A DNA stretch of 62,165 nt, counting the filler, from Anaerolineae bacterium (GTDB taxonomy: Bacteria > Chloroflexota > Anaerolineae > Epilineales > Epilineaceae), in assembly GCA_029262755.1 (NCBI GenBank). It is 5 parts of 5 records of this genome, joined end to end, with 100 filler letters (N's around TTAATTAATTAA, not from the genome) between each part and the next. Parts side by side here need not be neighbours in the genome. Positions count along the whole stretch, not along the records: positions 19,451 to 34,317 come from JAJCYU010000268.1; 4 more parts are not named here. One strand, given 5' to 3'. Every line of letters begins with the position of its first letter. The first letter of the stretch is position 1. Below, one piece after another: positions 24,439 to 34,118 of the stretch. A model generated the notes under the pieces. That model did no database searches, was not told where the DNA came from, and saw only the letters and a list, made by a program, of their open reading frames with translations. Made by a program: the position numbers and the translations under genes.

Positions 24439-26253
24439 CTACGCGGGATTCGTGCCGCGTAGCAACTCCTCTTGCGCCATGGCCGCCAAGTCCTGGAGCA
24501 GCTTCAGGTCGTCCGGGCTGAGCACGCGCGGGCGGTAGTCGATCACGCAGAAGCTGCCGACCGCTTCACCGGTAGCGGCGGACAGCGGCACGCCGGCGTA
24601 GAAGCGGATTCCGGGCGGTGCGGCCACGAGCGGGTTGTCCGCGAAACGGTCGTCGAGCAAGGTGTCGGGCACCACCAGCGGACGGTTGTCGAGGATGGCG
24701 TGGGCGCAGAACGCGACGTCGCGTGGGGTGTCCGCGGCATCCAGACCGCACACCGACTTGAAGTGCTGTCGGTCTCGGTCGATGAGCGTCAAGGCCGAGA
24801 CGGGCACTTGGAGGAGCCGTTGTGCGAGCTGTGTGAGGCGGTCGAAACGTGCATCCGACTCCGAGTCGAGCACGTCGAGGTCGACTAGGGCCTGCAAGCG
24901 GGCTTGCTCGTTGCTGGGAATCGCCGCGGCCGCCCATCTCCCGCCCGTGCGTAGTACGCCGGCGGCAATCCGAGCGCGCGCGTAGGCCGCGGTGAATGGC
25001 TTCTCCATCACGTCCGTCGCGCCGGCCTTCGTAGCGGCCGTGCGACCCTCTGTGTCACCGCCCGCCAAGGCGAGCAGGATTGCGCGATCCGCGGCCGACC
25101 CGCCCTCCGCGCCGCGGAGGCGGCGGCACAGTTCGAAGGCGGCGGACTCCTGCAAATCGTTGTCCAACAAGACCATCGCTGGTTGGTGGAATTCTACGAC
25201 CCGCATTGCGCTCTCTGGATCGTCCGCGGTGAGCAGGTTAAAGCCGTTGGCGAGCACCGCGTCGCCCAACGTCCGCGCCGTGTCGGGGTCGGGCGAGACC
25301 ACGAGCACTTGGTGCTGGATGATCGCGGAGCGCAGGGCGAGTTCGGTCGCCGCGGCGGATTCGCGATGCGGCACGGGATCGAGGCGGGCGAGCTCTATCG
25401 TGCGCCCCTCCGCGGCGGCGAAAACATCTAACGTCGATCCACCTGCCGCGGCGCGCCGTCGGGCCTCCTGCTCTAGGCCTTCGAGCTCAGCATCGGTTCG
25501 CCACGGGTCGTGATGGAAGAGGGCCAACCGCCGAACCTTGGCTCGCAGCGCAAGGTCAACCCCATACTCCATCGTGCTGTGTCCCCAGCCCATCCTCTGC
25601 GGATATTCCTCCGCGGTGTACTGCGCGTCGTGGATCAGCAGATCGACGTCTTCGACGAACTTGGCATGCGCGAGATCCTCACCCGTCAGGCGACCGCGGA
25701 TGCCGTCGGCGTACTGCCGTTCGTGGGGCTCGTGGTCGGTGGCGTAGACCACCGTGACGCCGTCCACCTCGAAGCGATAGCCCACCGTCAGCGCGGGATG
25801 GTTGAGGAAACGGGTCGTGACCCGAATGTCGTCGATCTCGAAGGTGCCCTCGACCAGCTCGTGATAGCTACGGTCGGCGCCGATTCCCGTGAGCGATATC
25901 GGGAAGTAGGGCTCGCGCAGCTGGCCGGTCAGCGTGTCCTTGAGCGATTCGCCCAGGCCCCGCGGCCCGTAGATGTCCCACCGCGCGTCGGGCAGATAGA
26001 GGGGCTGGAAGAAGGGGAAGCCCTGCACGTGATCCCAATGCGTGTGGGTGAAGAGCATGTGCCCCCGCAGCGCGTCCGTGCCGGTGGCGGCCAGCTCGCG
26101 GCCCAAGCCGTGCGCGCCGGTGCCGCAGTCCAGCACCAGCAGGGTGCCGGCCGCGGATCGCAGCGTCACGCAGGAGGTATTGCCCCCATAGCGCAGCGTC
26201 GACGCTCCCGGTTGCGGGATAGAGCCGCGGGTTCCCCAGAATTTCAGGTGCAT
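24439..26253 (-). CDS. MBL-fold metallohydrolase fused to REC and GAF domains
   Basis: FWGTRGS, YGGNTSC, THTHWDH, GWGHS, FHHDP. REC region (VLLD...KPF). GAF region (FCAHAI, RFADNPLV, IRFYAG). Confidence 0.9.
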   Translation of the reverse strand: MHLKFWGTRGSIPQPGASTLRYGGNTSCVTLRSAAGTLLVLDCGTGAHGLGRELAATGTDALRGHMLFTHTHWDHVQGFPFFQPLYLPDARWDIYGPRGLGESLKDTLTGQLREPYFPISLTGIGADRSYHELVEGTFEIDDIRVTTRFLNHPALTVGYRFEVDGVTVVYATDHEPHERQYADGIRGRLTGEDLAHAKFVEDVDLLIHDAQYTAEEYPQRMGWGHSTMEYGVDLALRAKVRRLALFHHDPWRTDAELEGLEQEARRRAAAGGSTLDVFAAAEGRTIELARLDPVPHRESAAATELALRSAIIQHQVLVVSPDPDTARTLGDAVLANGFNLLTADDPESAMRVVEFHQPAMVLLDNDLQESAAFELCRRLRGAEGGSAADRAILLALAGGDTEGRTAATKAGATDVMEKPFTAAYARARIAAGVLRTGGRWAAAAIPSNEQARLQALVDLDVLDSESDARFDRLTQLAQRLLQVPVSALTLIDRDRQHFKSVCGLDAADTPRDVAFCAHAILDNRPLVVPDTLLDDRFADNPLVAAPPGIRFYAGVPLSAATGEAVGSFCVIDYRPRVLSPDDLKLLQDLAAMAQEELLRGTNPA

Positions 26254-26485
26254 GGCGTTGCTCCGGCTTGCCCGTGTCGGAACGATGTCGAAGCCGATGG
26301 CCACGTCGGCAGGCACTGCCAGCATATCGCCTAGCGCGAGGAAGGCAACACGAGCAATCGGTGTGCGCAGCTCGCTCGCCCGCCGGACGCGGTTGACGCA
26401 GCATCCGATTGCGGACACGATCGCGCCGGCTCGGAGCGCTGCGTCCGGGCGCCCGGGTCGAGAACATTAGCGAGGAGGAGCGACC

Positions 26486-26812: not shown

Positions 26813-27607
26813 GTGGGGCGTCTGCCGGTGGCGGTCCCGGAGCCGATCCCCGCGCTGCGGGCGGAGTTCGCCGCGCAACCTTCCGATGAGAAGCGGGCCT
26901 TGGATCTGGCACGCGCGCTCGGCGCCGCGGGCTGCGGCCACGAAGCCGGCGTGCATCTGCGTCCGCGTCGTGCTGCCTGGCGGGACGCGAGCTGGGCGTC
27001 GGACGCGAAGGCTTGGCTTGCGGCCACGACGTGGTGGAACAGCAATTGGCGCGAGGTCGCGCTTGCGCGGCAGTCGGGTCGCTACGCAGAAGCACGGTCG
27101 ATGGTCGGCGATCGCGCGTCTGCGCTGTGGGACTTTCCACCATTGCTTGCGCACCTCGAAGCGATTGCCCGTGCGGACGGTGACTGGGCGGAGGTCGCGC
27201 ACCTGGACGCCCGTATCGTGTACCTGTGCGAGCGCGGCGTACCGAAAATCCCCACGGCGGCGTTCGACTACCTCGCGCGCGTGGGCTTGCTTGAGGCGCG
27301 GGCAGAGCAGGGTCAGCCGGAGGAAGCGCTGACCGAGCTGGAGGCGCTGAACCACCATCCGGGCAACCAGCATCATTACCAGATGCGCCTCGCCGAATTG
27401 ACCGTGCTCGCCGACAAGCAGGAGCGGGCCATGCGCCGCGTGGCGGAGGCGCTGATCACGGCGGGCAAACGTACAGGCTACTCGAAGACCCTCCGCGAGA
27501 CGTGGGTTGAGCATTCGCCGCGCCTCGAGCCGCTGCGTGCACGCCCTGACTGGCCGATCTTGGTCGCCGAGCCCAAAGAGTGGCTGGCGGAGCATGGCGC
27601 ACCGTGA
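26813..27607 (+). CDS. Hypothetical TPR-like helical protein
   Basis: Ala/Leu/Glu/Arg-rich helical pattern. GTGA overlap with the M23 gene. Confidence 0.6.
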   Translation: MGRLPVAVPEPIPALRAEFAAQPSDEKRALDLARALGAAGCGHEAGVHLRPRRAAWRDASWASDAKAWLAATTWWNSNWREVALARQSGRYAEARSMVGDRASALWDFPPLLAHLEAIARADGDWAEVAHLDARIVYLCERGVPKIPTAAFDYLARVGLLEARAEQGQPEEALTELEALNHHPGNQHHYQMRLAELTVLADKQERAMRRVAEALITAGKRTGYSKTLRETWVEHSPRLEPLRARPDWPILVAEPKEWLAEHGAP

Positions 27608-28401
27608 TCCGACGTGATGCGCCCCGCCGCCCCACCCTCGTGCGCCCCGCGCTCGCGCGCACGGCCCTCGCGCTGGCGGCCGTCGTCGTGCTCCTGCTGG
27701 CCGCCGTCCGCTTCGGCGCCGTCGACGCGCCGCCGATCGGCATCGGCCCCGGCCGCGACCCGGCGGCGGTCGCGCGTTTGCGCAGCTGGATCGACGACCC
27801 GGCCGCGTACCTCGCGTGGCGGCTCGATGCCGGCACCCGCTGCGGCGAAGCGCCGATGCTGCTGCCGACCTCCGGCATGGTCGGCTACGGGCGGGGCGAC
27901 AGGGTCCGGCCCGGTCCCCTTCACTCCGGACTCGACATCTTCAGCCCCGACGGCCTCCTCGGCGTGACCCCAATCGTCGCCGCGTACGATGGCTTCCTGA
28001 CGCGCGAGGCGGATTGGAAGAGCACCGTGATCATTCGGCACCCCGATTTCCCCTCGGAACTCGGGCTGGTGGACACGGGTGACACGATCTGGACCTACTA
28101 CACCCACATGGCTTCCGTGGACGGCGAGACGGTCTACATCGAGCCGGACTTTCCGCCCGGCACCTATGAGCAGCCGATAGCCGCCGGCACGCTCCTCGGC
28201 TACCAGGGTCGCTGGTCGGGCGACCCCGGCGCACCGACGGGGCTGCACCTGCACTTTTCGATCGTGCGCTCGACGCAGACTGCGGCGGACGGGGTGCCCG
28301 GCTTCCTGGACGAGACGCAGATCGAGCACACCTACGACCCGCTGCCCTTCCTGGGACTCACGCCGGACGCGGCAGGCGTGCCGGTGTGTAGGGAGCCGTA
28401 G
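27604..28401 (+). CDS. M23-family metallopeptidase, membrane-anchored
   Basis: N-terminal TM, HSGLD, YYTHM, HLHF. Confidence 0.88.
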   Translation: MIRRDAPRRPTLVRPALARTALALAAVVVLLLAAVRFGAVDAPPIGIGPGRDPAAVARLRSWIDDPAAYLAWRLDAGTRCGEAPMLLPTSGMVGYGRGDRVRPGPLHSGLDIFSPDGLLGVTPIVAAYDGFLTREADWKSTVIIRHPDFPSELGLVDTGDTIWTYYTHMASVDGETVYIEPDFPPGTYEQPIAAGTLLGYQGRWSGDPGAPTGLHLHFSIVRSTQTAADGVPGFLDETQIEHTYDPLPFLGLTPDAAGVPVCREP

Positions 28402-28680
28402 TAAGGCTTTTCGCCCGATTCGGTCGTGCACGCACCGCTATCGCGGTCGCGAGTCAAGGGACCGCGGGGCACGCCTGGCATCCACGATGCTCCGGTGCCC
28501 GAGCCCGAGCCCGAGCCCGCATCGCGGACGCGGACGTCGAAGTGGACGTGGACTTCTGCGACATGCTCGCAACGGAGGTGGGGCAAGACGGCCGCGTGCA
28601 ACGGGGCGAACCCAGGCTTGCTTGGCCTGGGCTCGCTCTTTCGTATCGCTTGGGAACGCGACCTGCCTGGCCGCGCTCGC

Positions 28681-29562
28681 TCAGTCTCCGCGGTAAAGCA
28701 ACGGCAGCAGCAGGACGTGTCGCGGGGGTGCTACCGTGCTCGCCGGACGCGTCGGCGTCGCTTCGACGGGCGGCGCGGTGGTAGGCGCCGTGGTCGGCGC
28801 GCTCGTCGGCACCGTGGTCGCGTCGGCGGTGGCGGTGGGTGGCGACGTCGTTGGCGGCGGGAGGTACGGCCGCTCGTTGTGATAGCAGGCCGGTGGATCG
28901 TCCAAGTAGCGTTCCAGGGACGCGGCAAGGTCGCCGAAGTCGAGCAGCTCGCCCCGCCGGCGTCCCGGCGCGGTGCCATCGGACGACCAGGCCCAGTCGT
29001 GCTGTTCGAGCACGGTGCCGTCGCAGTCGATCAGGTAGCCGGCGTTGGGCCGACCGCCGCCATACGTGCTCCGGATGGCCTCGTCACTGTGCGTATCATG
29101 CTCGATGAAGTCGATCATCATCGGGATCACGAGATCCGGTTCGGGATCGTATTTCATCCAACGCCCACGCTGTGCACGCTCCGGCATCGTCTTGGTGACG
29201 GTCACCGGATGATCCCAGCACTCCGTGCCGGGGTGCGCCTCTTTGCCGTAAACCCAGATGAAGTTGATGCGGTCGCTGAAGGTCCGATACGTTTCTTCCA
29301 AACCTTGGAAGTTATTGTGCGAAGGCGGTCAGGTCGCCGAACCGGTCACGAGAACCAACGGGCGATCCGCGATCATGTCCGCCATCTCGATCTCCCGCTC
29401 AAACTCGTCGATGCTCTGGTAGAGCACGGCTTTGTCGCCGACCAGCAGTTTGGTCGGGCGCTGGCGCTGCGCCTCGGCGGGTCGATGTCCCGCCAGGGTT
29501 ACGAGGGCGGCGCTGCTTAGGATCAGCGCCGCGCCCGCCAGAATTCGTCGATTGCGTGCCAT
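28681..29562 (-). CDS. Secreted iodothyronine-deiodinase-like selenoprotein (UGA = Sec at 29329-29331)
   Basis: AAGGAG SD and signal peptide ending AEA. RPLVLVTGSAT-TGA-PPS continues in frame to FIWVYGKEAHP. Pro/Thr linker and C-terminal VLLLPLLYR. Confidence 0.88.
29295..29311 (-). promoter_or_regulatory. Candidate bacterial SECIS element
   Basis: mRNA CUUCCAA-GGU-UUGGAAG. The GGU apical loop lies about 24 nt after the UGA. Confidence 0.65.
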
Positions 29563-29761
29563 GTTGCGCTCCTTGGTGGCGATGGTATGTAGGGAGACGG
29601 GTGCGTGCCCTCCCCCTGGAGCAACGCTGCAGCAGGCCGAAGCGTTTGATGGTCCGTGAATCACCCCTGACGAACGATCTACCTGCCTTCCGACAATTCC
29701 TATACAGTGCGGTCGCTACAGTGCGGTCGGCTGAATTCCTCCCACGCGCACAGGAAATCGG

Positions 29762-31111
29762 ATGGCGGACTACTACACCGGCAGCCAGGCGGTCGAGCAC
29801 TACAACCACACCCTGGAGACGGCCGGAAAGTTGCGCGCTTCGTATCGGACGCTAGACGGGCGGGTCGCGCAGGCAATCACTCGGGTCGAGAACCATATGG
29901 CCGACGCCCGCCAGGCACTCGGCGCGGCCTACTTCCCCGTCTTGTCGCCGGAGGCGATCGCGGACCTCGAAAGGCTTACCGGCTTCAAGGGGTTCAGCCG
30001 GCGTGATCCCATCGCTGCCATGGCGCACGAGCGTCACGTGCTGGAGCGCGCTGTCGAGACCGTGCTGGCGGACGATCGCTACCAGCGGCGCGAGGACCTG
30101 ATCGGGCCGGAGGGGGAGCTAACCAGGGACTTGGCGCGAATCAAGCAACGGCTGGATCCGTTCGAGGCGGAAGTTCAGCGCTTCGAGGGGCTCGACACCT
30201 TCCTCGAATTGGTGTCCACCGCGTACGACACACCCGAGTTCCGCGTTCGTTGGTGGGATCGGGACTATTGGCGGCTGTGGGCCGCGGGTGATCGGGTCTG
30301 CGAAGAGCTCGGGCTGGACGATTTCGGCGACGACGTGCTTCCCCGATATCACGCCGCGTTGGCCGATCGTGATCCCGTGATGGAGGAATATCTGCAGGCC
30401 AAATCGATCGCAGACGAGATTCGAGGGTTGGTGGAAACCCACGATCGCTCGACGGCACGATTGCAGCACCTGGAGGCCTCCTATCTGGAAGAGAGCCAGC
30501 AGGCGCTGGCCGAGTTCTTCGAGCACGCCGATTTGACCCTGCTCTCCGACTGGCTGGATGACGACGCGGCAGCGCAAGATGGCGCGCAGGACGACGCATC
30601 ACGCCGGCGCGCGATTCAGATGGCGCTGCGTCGCGTAGCCGGTCTCCGCGCAAAGTCGGGCTTCCTGAACGATCTCGCGGCGGTGTCGATCCGGCCCATG
30701 ATCGCCTCGTTGGACGATCGTGCGAACAAGTACCGTCGCAAGATCACCAAGTACGGCCGGCCAAAGTATCGGGGGCGGTCCGTAACCGAGCGCGAGCTGG
30801 ATCGAGCCTTTCTCGCGAAGAGGAGTAAGTACACCCACCGCAGAAACAAGCTGAGCGAGCTCATCGAGCGGCTGGACCAATACGAGGACTACGAGAACTT
30901 CATGCTCAGCGATCCACCGGAGCTGTGGTGGCGCGAAATGACCCGCACACGCCCGCCCACGCAGATGCGCGAGCTGCGGGCCTGGTATGACCGGCATCCG
31001 GACGCCCGTCCCACGGCGGCCGACGATCCTTGGGAGCGCGTCGACGAAGACGCCGCTGCCGTCGCGGAAGCGGCGGCGGCCGTTGACCACGATGTGGACT
31101 TCCTGTCATGA
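29762..31111 (+). CDS. Hypothetical helical/coiled-coil protein, first gene of a GT/radical SAM operon
   Basis: 449-aa ORF with normal codon pattern. ATGA overlap with the next gene. Confidence 0.8.
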   Translation: MADYYTGSQAVEHYNHTLETAGKLRASYRTLDGRVAQAITRVENHMADARQALGAAYFPVLSPEAIADLERLTGFKGFSRRDPIAAMAHERHVLERAVETVLADDRYQRREDLIGPEGELTRDLARIKQRLDPFEAEVQRFEGLDTFLELVSTAYDTPEFRVRWWDRDYWRLWAAGDRVCEELGLDDFGDDVLPRYHAALADRDPVMEEYLQAKSIADEIRGLVETHDRSTARLQHLEASYLEESQQALAEFFEHADLTLLSDWLDDDAAAQDGAQDDASRRRAIQMALRRVAGLRAKSGFLNDLAAVSIRPMIASLDDRANKYRRKITKYGRPKYRGRSVTERELDRAFLAKRSKYTHRRNKLSELIERLDQYEDYENFMLSDPPELWWREMTRTRPPTQMRELRAWYDRHPDARPTAADDPWERVDEDAAAVAEAAAAVDHDVDFLS

Positions 31112-32793
31112 AAACCGTGCGCATTGTTTCCTACGCCATCAACGGTCGCGGCATGGGCCACTTGGTGCGACAGCTGGCCATCCTGCGTTGGGTGCGCCGC
31201 ATCCTGGCACTGCTCGATGTTCCCTGCGAAGCATGGGTGCTCACATCCTCCGAGGCGGACACGCTCGCACGGCGCGAAGGGGTGCCGGCGTTGAAGATGC
31301 CGTCGAAGGCCATGGTACGCGACGCGGGACTCGAGCCGGCGCGCTACCTGGCCATCGCCCGCCCTTGGGTGCTCAACGCCATCGCGGGGCTGCAACCGGA
31401 CATCTTGATCGTGGACACCTTTCCCGGCGGTAGCTTCGGCGAGCTTGTCGCGGCCCTGGAGCTTGCGCCGCGGCGGGTGCTCGTTGCGCGCGCCGTGCGC
31501 GACAACGTCGCCGCGGACGACGCATACCGCGCGCTCCTGCCGATGTACGACCTGGTCCTGCGGCCCGACGACGATGGCTGCGGGCCGATCCTGATTCGCG
31601 AACGCGACGAGCTGTTGCCGCGCCAAGAAGCACGCCGAGCCCTCGGCATACCGGATGACCGCCGCGCCGTCTATGTCTCACTCGGCGGAGGCGGCGATCT
31701 GGACGCATCCGGCCTCTTGCCGGACATGGTCACCCGGCTGGCCGGCGGTGGCCGGCACGTGGTCGTGGGGGCGGGTCCGCTGTACAGCGGGCGAGAAGTC
31801 CGTGGTCCCGATATCACGTGGCTCGACCGCTACGTGCCGTCCGAGTTGTTGCCCGGCATCGATGCAGCCGTCTCCGCCGCGGGCTACAACTCCTTCCACG
31901 AGCTGATGCATGCCGGCATCCCCACGGTCTTTCTGCCGCAGCCGCGGCTGTCGGACGATCAGGCGGCACGGGCTGCCAGGGCCGAGGCGGCGGGAGCAGG
32001 CTGCATTGCACGCAGCATCGACGAAGTCGCGCAGTTGCTCGAATCACCGGGCGATCCCGCTGCCGCCCGCGCGCTCGTACCCGGCGGGGGCGCGAAGGCC
32101 GCCGCGCTCGCCGTGCTCGCGGGCGTCGTTCCGACGGACGATCTCGCGCTGGCCGACCGGGCGTTTACACCGGAACTCGTGCGGCTCGTCCAAGGCCTGC
32201 CCGCGGCGGGGCGCGAAGGCAGCGGCAACGAAGAAGCTCGCTGGCGGCAGACCTTCGCCCTCCTGCGCCTGTGCGGCGATGCGCCTCGCCGGGGCGCACG
32301 ACGTCGCGCGTTGCTGGCGGAGCTTGCCGCGCAGGGCGCCCCGCTTCCGGATCGACTGAGCGCGGAGATGGGCGAAGGCCCGGAAACCGCGACCGGCCGC
32401 CTCCAGCGCATCACGACGCTCTGCGAGCAGGTGGGCGCACCGCTCGACACGTCGATCGCCCTCTTGCACGCGCTGCGGCGCAAGTTCCCTTTGGACGATT
32501 CCGACGCGTTGATCCGCGCCGCGGAACGCCTGTGGCCGGTCTGGGCGCGATTCGACGACTGGATGGGAGCGGTCTCGCTCCTGCGCGCCGTCCCGCGGCA
32601 ACGCACGCTTGAGGTGGTGGACTTCGCCGAGGGCGTGGAGCGATGGCTGGAGAACGAGGAGGACTTGTTTGAAGCGTTGCGCGCGTTCGCGCGCTCGGAA
32701 GGCGACGGCCAGCGCCCGGTAGGGGAAGTCTTGGGGATGTTGCGCGGCAACCGCGTCGTCAAAGCGACGACCGCCAAGGAGCGGACACGATGA
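31108..32793 (+). CDS. GT-B glycosyltransferase (GT28/PseG-like) with C-terminal helical extension
   Basis: NGRGMGHLVR, VSLGGGG, SAAGYNSFHE, DDQAARA. Confidence 0.82.
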   Translation: MKTVRIVSYAINGRGMGHLVRQLAILRWVRRILALLDVPCEAWVLTSSEADTLARREGVPALKMPSKAMVRDAGLEPARYLAIARPWVLNAIAGLQPDILIVDTFPGGSFGELVAALELAPRRVLVARAVRDNVAADDAYRALLPMYDLVLRPDDDGCGPILIRERDELLPRQEARRALGIPDDRRAVYVSLGGGGDLDASGLLPDMVTRLAGGGRHVVVGAGPLYSGREVRGPDITWLDRYVPSELLPGIDAAVSAAGYNSFHELMHAGIPTVFLPQPRLSDDQAARAARAEAAGAGCIARSIDEVAQLLESPGDPAAARALVPGGGAKAAALAVLAGVVPTDDLALADRAFTPELVRLVQGLPAAGREGSGNEEARWRQTFALLRLCGDAPRRGARRRALLAELAAQGAPLPDRLSAEMGEGPETATGRLQRITTLCEQVGAPLDTSIALLHALRRKFPLDDSDALIRAAERLWPVWARFDDWMGAVSLLRAVPRQRTLEVVDFAEGVERWLENEEDLFEALRAFARSEGDGQRPVGEVLGMLRGNRVVKATTAKERTR

Positions 32794-34118
32794 CCATCGA
32801 CGTCCCGCTGTCCTCGCTGCTGGCGCCGCGTCCGCGACAGAACGCGATCGCGTCGATGCCGATGTCCGCGCTTCGGCGCAACGTGATCGAGGGTCTACGG
32901 GCCGGCCGCCCGCAGATCGGCCCGCAGACAGTGCACATCGACGTCACCAATGCTTGCAACGCAGCGTGCACCACCTGCTGGGATCACTCGCCGCTCTTGA
33001 ACGTCCCGCGCTCCGGCGCGTGGAAGGGTCAGCGAATGCCGCGGCCCGTGTTTCAGGGAATCGTGGATGACCTGGTCGCGATGGGTTCGGTGCGTCACCT
33101 GATCGTGTCCGGCATGGGCGAACCGCTCGTGCATCCCGAAATCTACGCCATGCTCGCATCCGCCAAAGCGGCGGGTTGGGAGTTGACCGTGATGACCAAC
33201 CTGGTGGCGGCGGACATGGATCGTCTGGTGGATAGCGGCGTCGACCGGCTGCTCGTGGGCGTACAAGGCGTGACCCCTGCCACACACGCCGCTTTTCACC
33301 CCGGCTGGAGCGAACGCGAGTTCTTCCGCCTGTGTAACCATCTTCGCCGCGCATCGCGTGCGGGCATCGCCACACGGCACGTGCAGGTGATCAACCGTGA
33401 TCTGGCGCCGGAAGTGCCGGCCATGGTTCGCTTCGGACATCGCTTCGGCGCGGATCGGGTGAACTTCAAGCTGGCGAGCCTCAGTGCGGGCACGGAGGCC
33501 TGCATGATCACGCCCCAGCAGCGGGCTTGGCTGCTCGACGAGGGCGTGCCGGCCGCTCGCGCGCTGGCCGATGAGCTCGGCGTGACCACGACGCTCGACC
33601 TCTTCGAACGCCAGCTCCTTGCCGGCCTCGACGGCGACACGCCCGAAACGACGACCCCGATTGCCGACGTGGGCTGTTTTATGGGCTATGCCTATACACG
33701 AATCACCGTCCAAGGCGAGGTCCTCTACTGCTGCAACACCAACGTACAGGTGGGTACGTTGGCCGATGGCCCCGTCTCCCAACTGTGGTACGGCGAACGC
33801 TGGCAGGCCCTTCGCGACCGGCTCCGTGCCGGTAACTACCTGCCCGGCTGCGAACGCTGCGGCAAGTTCGAGCAAAACGTGAAGTGGAGCGCGCGCCTCC
33901 GCGAGGCAGAGGGCGCCGCGCGATGGCGTGCTGCGACCGGGCACGCGGATGTGGGGCGCGACGAGAACGAGCATGGCGCGACCGGGCTCGATCTCGCCGA
34001 GCGCACCGCACCGGGTCATGGCGTCGGGGACGACGCGGTCCATACGTTCAATACGAACGACGCAATCGACGCAATTGACGCGATCGACGCGATCGATGCG
34101 TGGGAAGCGGACGAATGA
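32790..34118 (+). CDS. Radical SAM protein with SPASM/twitch domain
   Basis: CNAACTTC, SGMGEPL, and C-terminal C.MGY....GEVLYCC...CERC. Confidence 0.92.
   Translation: MTIDVPLSSLLAPRPRQNAIASMPMSALRRNVIEGLRAGRPQIGPQTVHIDVTNACNAACTTCWDHSPLLNVPRSGAWKGQRMPRPVFQGIVDDLVAMGSVRHLIVSGMGEPLVHPEIYAMLASAKAAGWELTVMTNLVAADMDRLVDSGVDRLLVGVQGVTPATHAAFHPGWSEREFFRLCNHLRRASRAGIATRHVQVINRDLAPEVPAMVRFGHRFGADRVNFKLASLSAGTEACMITPQQRAWLLDEGVPAARALADELGVTTTLDLFERQLLAGLDGDTPETTTPIADVGCFMGYAYTRITVQGEVLYCCNTNVQVGTLADGPVSQLWYGERWQALRDRLRAGNYLPGCERCGKFEQNVKWSARLREAEGAARWRAATGHADVGRDENEHGATGLDLAERTAPGHGVGDDAVHTFNTNDAIDAIDAIDAIDAWEADE
34059..34100 (+). repeat. 9-bp tandem repeat (about 4.5 copies) encoding DAI repeats
   Basis: GACGCAATC GACGCAATT GACGCGATC GACGCGATC GATGCG. 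Confidence 0.85.

Follow-up and report, generated by a model that had tools for sequence, protein, structure and literature searches.

The DNA analysed here is a stretch of 62,165 nucleotides (the window) joined from five parts of the genome of an Anaerolineae bacterium (Chloroflexota; assembly GCA_029262755.1, 84% complete with 0.72% contamination), and the gene under study lies on its minus strand at 28684–29562, on contig C268 (record JAJCYU010000268.1). In all likelihood it is one intact, real and unannotated gene for an exported selenoprotein having the thioredoxin fold of the iodothyronine-deiodinase/peroxiredoxin-like kind. The frame runs over 293 codons from an ATG at 29562 to the stop codon TGA at 28681–28683, and its translation contains only one internal TGA, at 29329–29331 (codon 78), which is read here as a selenocysteine (Sec) codon. 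The initial annotation had described two open reading frames (ORFs), 29329–29664(−) and 28681–29301(−), as halves of one protein; both exist in a common frame with one TGA between them, and every peptide string quoted from them is found in the read-through product. The parts of the gene are as follows.

28684–29562 (−): selenoprotein coding sequence, 293 codons with Sec as codon 78; from the reading frame, the Pfam match and the homologue P0015
29569–29574 (−): Shine-Dalgarno-like AAGGAG, 6 nucleotides 5' of the ATG; read directly from the sequence
29470–29562 (−): predicted signal peptide, residues 1–31; from inspection of the sequence and comparable N-termini in homologues
29329–29331 (−): putative Sec codon UGA, residue 78 (GSAT-U-PPS); from TGA or Cys at this column in homologues
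29295–29311 (−): hairpin of the selenocysteine insertion sequence (SECIS) type, 7-bp stem and GGU loop, after a 17-nucleotide spacer (29312–29328); from comparative conservation
28879–29451 (−): thioredoxin-fold, deiodinase-like catalytic domain, approximately residues 38–228; from the AlphaFold model, profile and Foldseek
28720–28878 (−): Pro/Thr/Ala-rich linker (stalk), residues 229–281; from the sequence, with a model confidence (pLDDT) near 50 and no secondary structure
28684–28719 (−): C-terminal tail HVLLLPLLYRGD, residues 282–293, candidate sorting or anchoring tag; from homologue tails and genome-wide recurrence

Decoding of the in-frame TGA

Three independent lines, namely the decoding machinery, the homologues and the population data, argue for the TGA at 29329–29331 as a Sec codon. 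Profile search of the genome gave selD (368 bits), selA (508 bits), selB (344 bits, full length, over positions 1–579 of 581) and tRNA-Sec (70.3 bits), each above its curated cut-off, and ARAGORN also reported the last as tRNA-SeC with anticodon tca. The genes selA, selB, selC and selD, which the initial annotation had proposed to look for, are all present in the genome. As an observation apart, the SelD of this genome (G000:C109:4931–5866, L001) is itself a selenoprotein, with an in-frame TGA and a U in the N-terminal loop SSCAGUASK.

The second line is provided by the homologues. When 185,579 species genomes were scanned with a degenerate pattern, 45 candidate stretches emerged, from which 10 subfamily loci were confirmed, 42–50% identical and belonging to assemblies of Myxococcales/Deltaproteobacteria, Fibrobacterota, Phycisphaerae and Planctomycetota. 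All ten carry TGA at the exact Sec column within the motif [GS]S[ACV][ST]-U-QP[SGA]Y, with the two halves in one frame. Search of 60 related genomes with the window protein as query gave nine genomes with a match, and eight of these matches, at 30–45% identity, contain one in-frame TGA each, surrounded by FGS[YFA][TS]-U-P. The ninth (G028, L033, E 8.5e-4), which has no TGA, was dropped, as it covers a Pro/Thr-rich low-complexity linker only. The same query found no close orthologue in the 60 related genomes, the matches there belonging to another Sec subfamily, and no paralogue in the genome itself.

An exhaustive search of 1.84 billion cluster representatives returned 374 proteins with E≤1e-3, 30 of them with E≤1e-10, and a word-based search returned the window protein's own fragment plus one 82% identical fragment and nothing else. 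Among the 15 best database matches, 12 start at query residue 88 or beyond, residue 88 being the first start codon past the TGA, one stops exactly at residue 77, and two span the Sec column, where P0007 has Cys and P0005 has Glu; the homologue P0015 shares the start Met with the window protein and ends at residue 77. The initial annotation had held that standard annotation would miss this gene, and the protein collection indeed contains a 206-residue fragment of it (P0002), the homologues being likewise stored as fragments. Selenoprotein genes usually go unannotated, and since standard annotation fragments this gene together with its relatives, the databases do not show an entire branch of exported selenoproteins.

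Cys stands at the Sec column in P0007 and in the more distant full-length proteins P0025, P0026, P0031 and P0032, so that Cys-containing homologues aligned at the UGA, anticipated in the initial annotation, do exist. In P0005, a full-length subfamily member of 262 residues, Glu takes the place of Sec and a Cys precedes it by two positions (GSCSEPTS); its active site may have been re-wired naturally, or the protein may be inactive.

For the third line, the metagenome comparison covered four runs (X1–X4), of which X1–X3 only gave long near-identical pieces; by their labels, the runs matching some of the stretch are metagenomes of biofilm, marine or sediment origin, with no RNA run listed among them, and the best-matching run, X1, possibly the source sample, is not independent. 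A contig of a different study, about 95% identical, covers 28906–29400, and 23 of its 25 differences are listed. None of the listed differences falls within 29258–29400, a segment that includes the TGA, the active site and the hairpin, and 20 of the 23 are at third codon positions of the read-through frame; the substitution of TGC or TGT for the TGA, against which the initial annotation had cautioned, is not among them. Upstream of the TGA, 10 of the 16 listed differences in other contigs of the same run (records 6–8) are at third positions, and the other six lie within 29420–29558, five of them in signal-peptide codons. Two runs are uninformative for the codon itself, since the single 246-nucleotide piece of X2 stops short of the TGA and X4 gave pieces of 32–37 nucleotides only, on low-complexity and conserved parts.

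The SECIS-type hairpin

The hairpin following the TGA is composed of the stem CUUCCAA/UUGGAAG and the loop GGU. The initial annotation had placed it about 24 nucleotides after the UGA, and it is present at 29295–29311, where the stem begins 17 nucleotides and the loop 24 nucleotides past the UGA. It occurs in the same register in all 11 subfamily sequences with six pairs invariant, and every loop has G followed by U, so that the SECIS candidate proposed earlier, with a G in its apical loop, is conserved throughout the subfamily. The closing pair is G-C in seven of the 11, A-U in the window and unpaired in the remaining three, the loop then comprising 5 nucleotides. The A-U pair of the window is compensatory (CAG/CUG to CAA/UUG), both changes being synonymous. 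Furthermore, 96.1% of the cells in the alignment of the 11 sequences are paired, as against 31–57% when the 3' arm is slid by 1–3 columns.

Codon usage in the hairpin region also bears on this point. The Glu codon across it is GAA in 11/11 sequences, and the codon that comes next has G as its first base in 11/11 while its residue varies (E, A, D or G), which suggests a constraint on the nucleotides and not on the protein. The combination of an in-frame TGA with an in-register hairpin, both conserved in homologues, is far beyond chance. The putative element matches the published description of bacterial SECIS elements, which lie 3' of the UGA and have a small apical loop with a G, as compared to eukaryotic ones, which are placed in the 3' untranslated region (available text of PMC1088965). 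The second Sec subfamily of the related genomes has a different hairpin about 10 nucleotides past the UGA, with loops such as GGC or GUC. The only matches of a terminator scan were the SECIS palindrome on the other strand and a weak stem within the gene.

Fold, active site and family placement

With Cys placed at the TGA, the read-through protein gives 33.1 bits (E 4.6e-8) on the Pfam profile PF00837 (T4_deiodinase), above the gathering threshold of 27 bits, in agreement with the deiodinase likeness claimed in the initial annotation. Active-site strand, helix 1 and EAHP strand all fall within the matching region. The structure was modelled with AlphaFold from an alignment of 26 rows, and the mean pLDDT is 74.7; averages over blocks of ten residues are mostly 84–96 for residues 41–190 and 211–230, with dips to 66 (residues 111–120) and 56–64 (residues 191–210), and are about 50 for the signal peptide, which lies outside the folded core, and for the stalk and the tail. 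In the model the Sec position directly precedes a helix (residues 79–95), which is where thioredoxin folds classically have their catalytic residue.

Comparison of the family profile with solved structures gave mouse Dio3 (4tr3, E 3.1e-27, along almost the entire domain), mouse Dio2 (9h48, E 6.7e-20) and ResA (4nmu, E 1e-9). Foldseek matches of the model were ResA at the top (4nmu, E 4e-9), Dio2, Dio3 and peroxiredoxins/BCP. In the profile alignment the blocks G-S-x-T-[U]-P-P and Y-x-x-E-A-H-P coincide with those of deiodinases, KEAHP being residues 107–111 of the window protein. The available text of the Dio2 structure paper (PMC11592359) describes a proton relay of Ser, Thr, Tyr, Glu and two His, and assigns to Arg275 of Dio3 the role of a substrate clamp. 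Ser75, Thr77, Sec78, Tyr105, Glu108 and His110 align with residues of Dio3/Dio2, and five of the six relay residues are thereby matched. As judged from these alignments, the selenoprotein appears to keep the catalytic core of deiodinases without their hormone-binding features.

Among NCBIfam models the best match is NF038285 (deiodinase_rel), which has the same catalytic core. The window protein scores 53.5 bits and the subfamily members 46–62 bits on it, as compared to 168–222 bits for the other Sec subfamily and a cut-off of 250, and these values place the window protein in a separate, uncurated branch. The signature of this branch is ERAQRxxWMK.DPEPD, IDCDG and PPACY; in the alignment ERAQR..WMK.DP.PD, IDCDG and PP.CY are invariant or nearly so, including two Cys. 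These two residues, Cys180 and Cys226, are suspected of being joined in a disulfide, which an exported protein would be expected to have.

The second Sec subfamily, with the motif FGS[YF]TUPPF...EAH.xDGW, is an observation in its own right. It is represented by L026–L032 in the genomes G003, G005, G006, G007, G012, G013 and G019, its members are mostly cytoplasmic-looking, and the window-protein query did not find it in the genome of the window.

Predicted export signal, stalk and C-terminal tail

Inspection of the N-terminus by eye indicates a charged MARNRR, a hydrophobic core of 19 residues and HRPAEA before Q32 (an A-E-A site), and subfamily members of other phyla likewise begin with a signal-peptide-like sequence. 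This N-terminus, the Pro/Thr stretch and the tail HVLLLPLLYRGD, all three listed in the initial annotation, are present in the product. The tail is of the class hydrophobic-hydrophobic-Pro-hydrophobic-x-x-Arg, and the closest relatives, P0003 (78%) and P0006 (66%), have Pro/Thr linkers too and end in SILLPWGMRE and RLLLPWLQR.

Recurrence of the tail was counted over every one of the 25,711 frames in the genome that run from stop to stop for 100 codons or more. The tail core, hydrophobic-hydrophobic-Pro-hydrophobic, occurs within the last 13 residues of 71 of the 472 frames with a Pro/Thr linker and of 490 of the 25,239 other frames, and at an internal control position in 7 of 301, corresponding to about 7-fold C-terminal enrichment in the Pro/Thr-linker ORFs. 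As many of the 472 frames are off-frame artefacts of a GC-rich genome, the true fraction with the tail is higher. A stricter pattern retained 99 frames, most of them long ones, and a crude rule assigned a signal-peptide-like N-terminus to 59; typical tails in the genome are IYLPLARHD, IVLPWLLR, LALPWLAR and IFLPRVLRE. The recurrent tail looks like a lineage-wide sorting tag, captured in part by the models NF050076 (sort_motif_YLP) and NF053834 (ultrashort_CTERM), which match other tails of the genome, e.g. on C304 and C253.

As a side observation, approximately 70–100 long ORFs close, behind a Pro/Thr/Ala-rich linker, with hydrophobic-[Y/W/L/I/H/F]-[L/I/V]-P-x-x-x-[R/K] as the C-terminal end, examples being C304:12845–16063 (+), C166:9222–11609 (−), C73:21622–23724 (+) and C262:4266–7001 (+).

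Orthologues carry other endings at the corresponding place. Myxococcota-type members have an acidic linker and then G-C..hydrophobic..RRR at the C-terminus; MYXO-CTERM models passed on L040 (TIGR03382, 19.4 bits, cut-off 15.85) and on P0014 (TIGR03901, 21.7 bits, cut-off 20), and stayed below cut-off on L034 and P0016. Of the Planctomycetota type, L042 has a large extra domain ending in a dockerin (Pfam), and L043 a comparable extension without a Pfam match. The interchange of MYXO-CTERM, dockerin and Leu-Pro tail among orthologues argues for the tail as a localisation signal. The idea of a sorting tail in the initial annotation thus gains from two sides, the genome-wide recurrence of the motif and the known sorting domains of orthologues at the same place, and we read the tail of the window protein as a divergent member of the lineage-wide C-terminal tag.

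Proposed mechanism and function

Decoding would proceed by the hairpin, 17 nucleotides past UGA-78, recruiting SelB with Sec-tRNA(Sec), so that Sec is inserted and translation does not stop; the decoding elements themselves are found in the genome, and SelB would be expected to bind the hairpin. The signal peptide would then take the protein across the membrane, and the stalk of about 50 residues together with the short hydrophobic-Pro-hydrophobic-Arg tail would hold or process it at the cell surface, a step proposed from the membership of the tail in a class that closes many exported proteins of the genome. At the active site, Sec78 is predicted to stand at the N-terminus of helix 1 beside Ser75, Thr77, Tyr105, Glu108 and His110. 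Its selenolate would most likely attack an electrophile (oxygen in a peroxide, sulfur in a disulfide, or a halogen), and the oxidised selenium would subsequently be reduced by a thiol. A peroxide or thiol-redox role is given roughly an even chance, and is rated above reductive dehalogenation of halogenated aromatics, for which the chance seems low.

Several observations weigh against the interpretation of this gene as that of an exported, surface-held, deiodinase-like selenoprotein. The folding energy of the hairpin is not significant (−7.3 kcal/mol, z −0.92, 31 of 200 shuffles as good, over 42 nucleotides; z 0.11 over 76 nucleotides around it), so that the SECIS case rests on comparative conservation, part of which the conserved peptide NFQ-x-LE could explain. 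Two of the 25 differences in the contig about 95% identical are unlisted and could in principle touch the TGA, so that the population line is supportive and not absolute. The Pfam match is partial, with residues 63–116 on profile positions 99–151 of 237, and the NF038285 score is below its cut-off. The second relay His aligns with Thr in the window protein, and the Arg275 clamp of Dio3 is not conserved, the 'ER' of Dio3 aligning with 'ys' in the consensus and with A-G in the window protein. The tail HVLLLPLLYRGD is too short for a membrane span, it is missing from the genome-wide lists of NF050076 and NF053834 (E≤10), and hmmscan of the tail gave an empty result. Lastly, no reductant for an extracellular enzyme was identified.

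The observations on the tail bear upon the alternative that the protein is not surface-tethered, being retained by an uncleaved N-terminal anchor or released freely, with the tail as a linker remnant devoid of a sorting role. It agrees with the failure of the two NCBIfam motif models to score the tail, with the Leu found where most tails of the genome have Tyr, Trp, Ile or His, and with the literature search, in which no paper on the tail motif was found; we know of no processing enzyme for it. The motif models, being only 10–11 positions long and matching in 10–11 of 14 unrelated control genomes as well, cannot decide the tail question. The retention of LLPW-x-x-R by close homologues at the extreme C-terminus after divergent linkers, the C-terminal enrichment of the motif in Pro/Thr-linker ORFs, and the presence of MYXO-CTERM or dockerin at the equivalent place in orthologues of other phyla all speak against it, and this alternative is considered rather improbable as compared to surface tethering.

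A further alternative, among the functions given in the initial annotation, concerns the substrate: the enzyme would reductively dehalogenate iodo- or bromo-aromatics outside the cell, its Sec abstracting the halogen in the manner of animal deiodinases. By profile, Dio3 and Dio2 are the nearest solved relatives, far ahead of ResA, the active-site network of deiodinases (PMC11592359, available text) is represented by its Ser, Thr, Sec, Tyr, Glu and one His, and the biofilm, marine or sediment labels of the matching runs would suit such an activity. The loss of the second His and of the carboxylate-clamp Arg of Dio3, however, weakens the case for a deiodinase-type substrate. The 2005 report on bacterial homologues argued, in its available text, for a general redox role (PMC1088965), and no redox-partner or halogen-related gene is common to the window and the 10 homologous loci, nor are there halogen-related neighbour genes in either. 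Dehalogenation is hence held to be unlikely, and the peroxide or thiol-redox role is preferred to it.

The remaining alternative, that the TGA is a true stop (in a pseudogene or between two small genes) or a TGC/TGT misread in sequencing or assembly, would account for the splitting of the locus by gene callers, for the fragments stored for homologues and for the unremarkable hairpin energy, but it is highly improbable, and the comparative data in effect refute it: 18 homologues of several phyla have TGA at this very column and keep both halves in one frame, differences biased to third positions occur on either side of it in the independent contig, the Sec machinery is complete, and the downstream fragment alone would, according to the model, be without the active-site strand and helix.

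In its most far-reaching form, the reading of the gene as an exported selenoprotein would make it the first member to be recognised in a family of selenoenzymes displayed on the cell surface, with lineage-specific anchors (YLP-type, MYXO-CTERM or dockerin) and an extracellular, deiodinase-type removal of iodine or bromine. This is a long shot. If it were true, the substrates would be natural halogenated phenolics of marine biofilms and sediments, microbial dehalogenation would have a cofactor-free, corrinoid-independent route, and the interchangeable anchors would amount to orthology-based evidence for the YLP-type tail as a surface-sorting signal.

Relation to known systems

In 2005, Zhang, Fomenko and Gladyshev described bacterial deiodinase homologues containing Sec or Cys, and their bacterial SECIS elements, in Sargasso Sea sequences and proposed a general redox role for them (PMC1088965, available text), and the kind of protein is therefore already known. 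The accessible parts of two reviews (PMC9312934, PMC13188914) list a 'Deiodinase-like protein, PF00837, UxxC'. As far as these sources go, the window protein shares with the known bacterial selenoproteins the T4_deiodinase domain, UGA-encoded Sec, a downstream SECIS with an apical G, Cys homologues and a presumed redox function. It differs in that they have UxxC whereas it has U-P-P-S, and its subfamily U-Q-P-S/G/A; it further adds a predicted signal peptide, an insertion, two invariant Cys (IDCDG and PPxCY), the stalk and a C-terminal anchor or tail. The available text of PMC1088965, PMC9312934 and PMC13188914 makes no mention of export of bacterial deiodinase-like proteins, and no description of an exported U-x-x-S/G/A branch with lineage-specific surface anchors was found in those portions of the literature that were searched. 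Some sequences of the earlier papers, whose figures and supplements lay outside this comparison, may belong to the exported branch.

The likeness to Dio3 (4tr3) and Dio2 (9h48) consists of the thioredoxin/peroxiredoxin-like fold, the Sec starting helix 1, and the G-S-x-T-U-P and E-A-H-P blocks. These enzymes, however, are membrane-anchored dimers acting on thyroid hormones, as compared to the window protein, which is predicted to be exported and has a C-terminal stalk; besides the second relay His and the Arg275 clamp, the loop after EAHP differs as well. With the extracytoplasmic thiol-disulfide oxidoreductases of the ResA/TlpA type (4nmu, 1st9), which include the top Foldseek match, it has in common the thioredoxin fold and, as predicted, a place outside the cytoplasm, but ResA uses a CxxC pair while the window protein has a single Sec with Ser at +3, and its sequence similarity to ResA is far below that to deiodinases. 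The YLP motif (NF050076/NF053834) resembles the tail class of this genome in being a short tag, hydrophobic-x-L-P-x-x-x-R/K, at the extreme C-terminus of many exported proteins with Pro/Thr linkers; the LLLPLLYR of the window protein differs in being scored by neither model.

A surface-tethered branch narrows the search for substrates to extracellular electrophiles, i.e. peroxides, halogenated organics and disulfides, and its members are compact single-domain proteins for assays. The anchors of the orthologues, in turn, are independent comparative support for the YLP-type tail as a localisation signal.

Genomic neighbourhood

The neighbours in the window are without a functional clue to the selenoprotein. 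Downstream lies a convergent M23-peptidase-like gene at 27580–28401 (+), and a GC-rich inverted repeat (CCCAGGC-N7-GCCUGGG, 28611–28631, −) follows the stop codon by about 50 nucleotides and is succeeded by UUCG; it went unreported by the terminator scan and may be a weak terminator. A promoter scan found no sigma-70-type site.

In other lineages, a divergent gene for a GAF/sigma-54 activator is located upstream in four of the 10 loci (L036:661–2322(−), L037:692–2323(−), L038:2–1786(−) and L040:3–896(−)), which suggests sigma-54-dependent, signal-controlled expression in those lineages, and selA is directly downstream in two deltaproteobacterial loci out of the 10 (L035:3038–3604 and L036:3557–5215). 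The adjoining selA in two assemblies and the divergent activator in four offer handles on the regulation of the selenoprotein.

Two further features of the window are recorded for completeness. On the other side of the selenoprotein gene, 29762–34118 (+) holds three divergently oriented genes that overlap one another and appear to be coupled in translation. Their products are a 449-residue protein without a Pfam match, a 561-residue protein weakly similar to glycosyltransferases of the GT28/EryCIII kind and a radical-SAM/SPASM protein; the trio may be a peptide- or sugar-modification cassette. A 659-residue ORF at 24439–26418 (−) encodes an unusual fusion of a metallo-beta-lactamase fold with a response-regulator receiver and a GAF domain.

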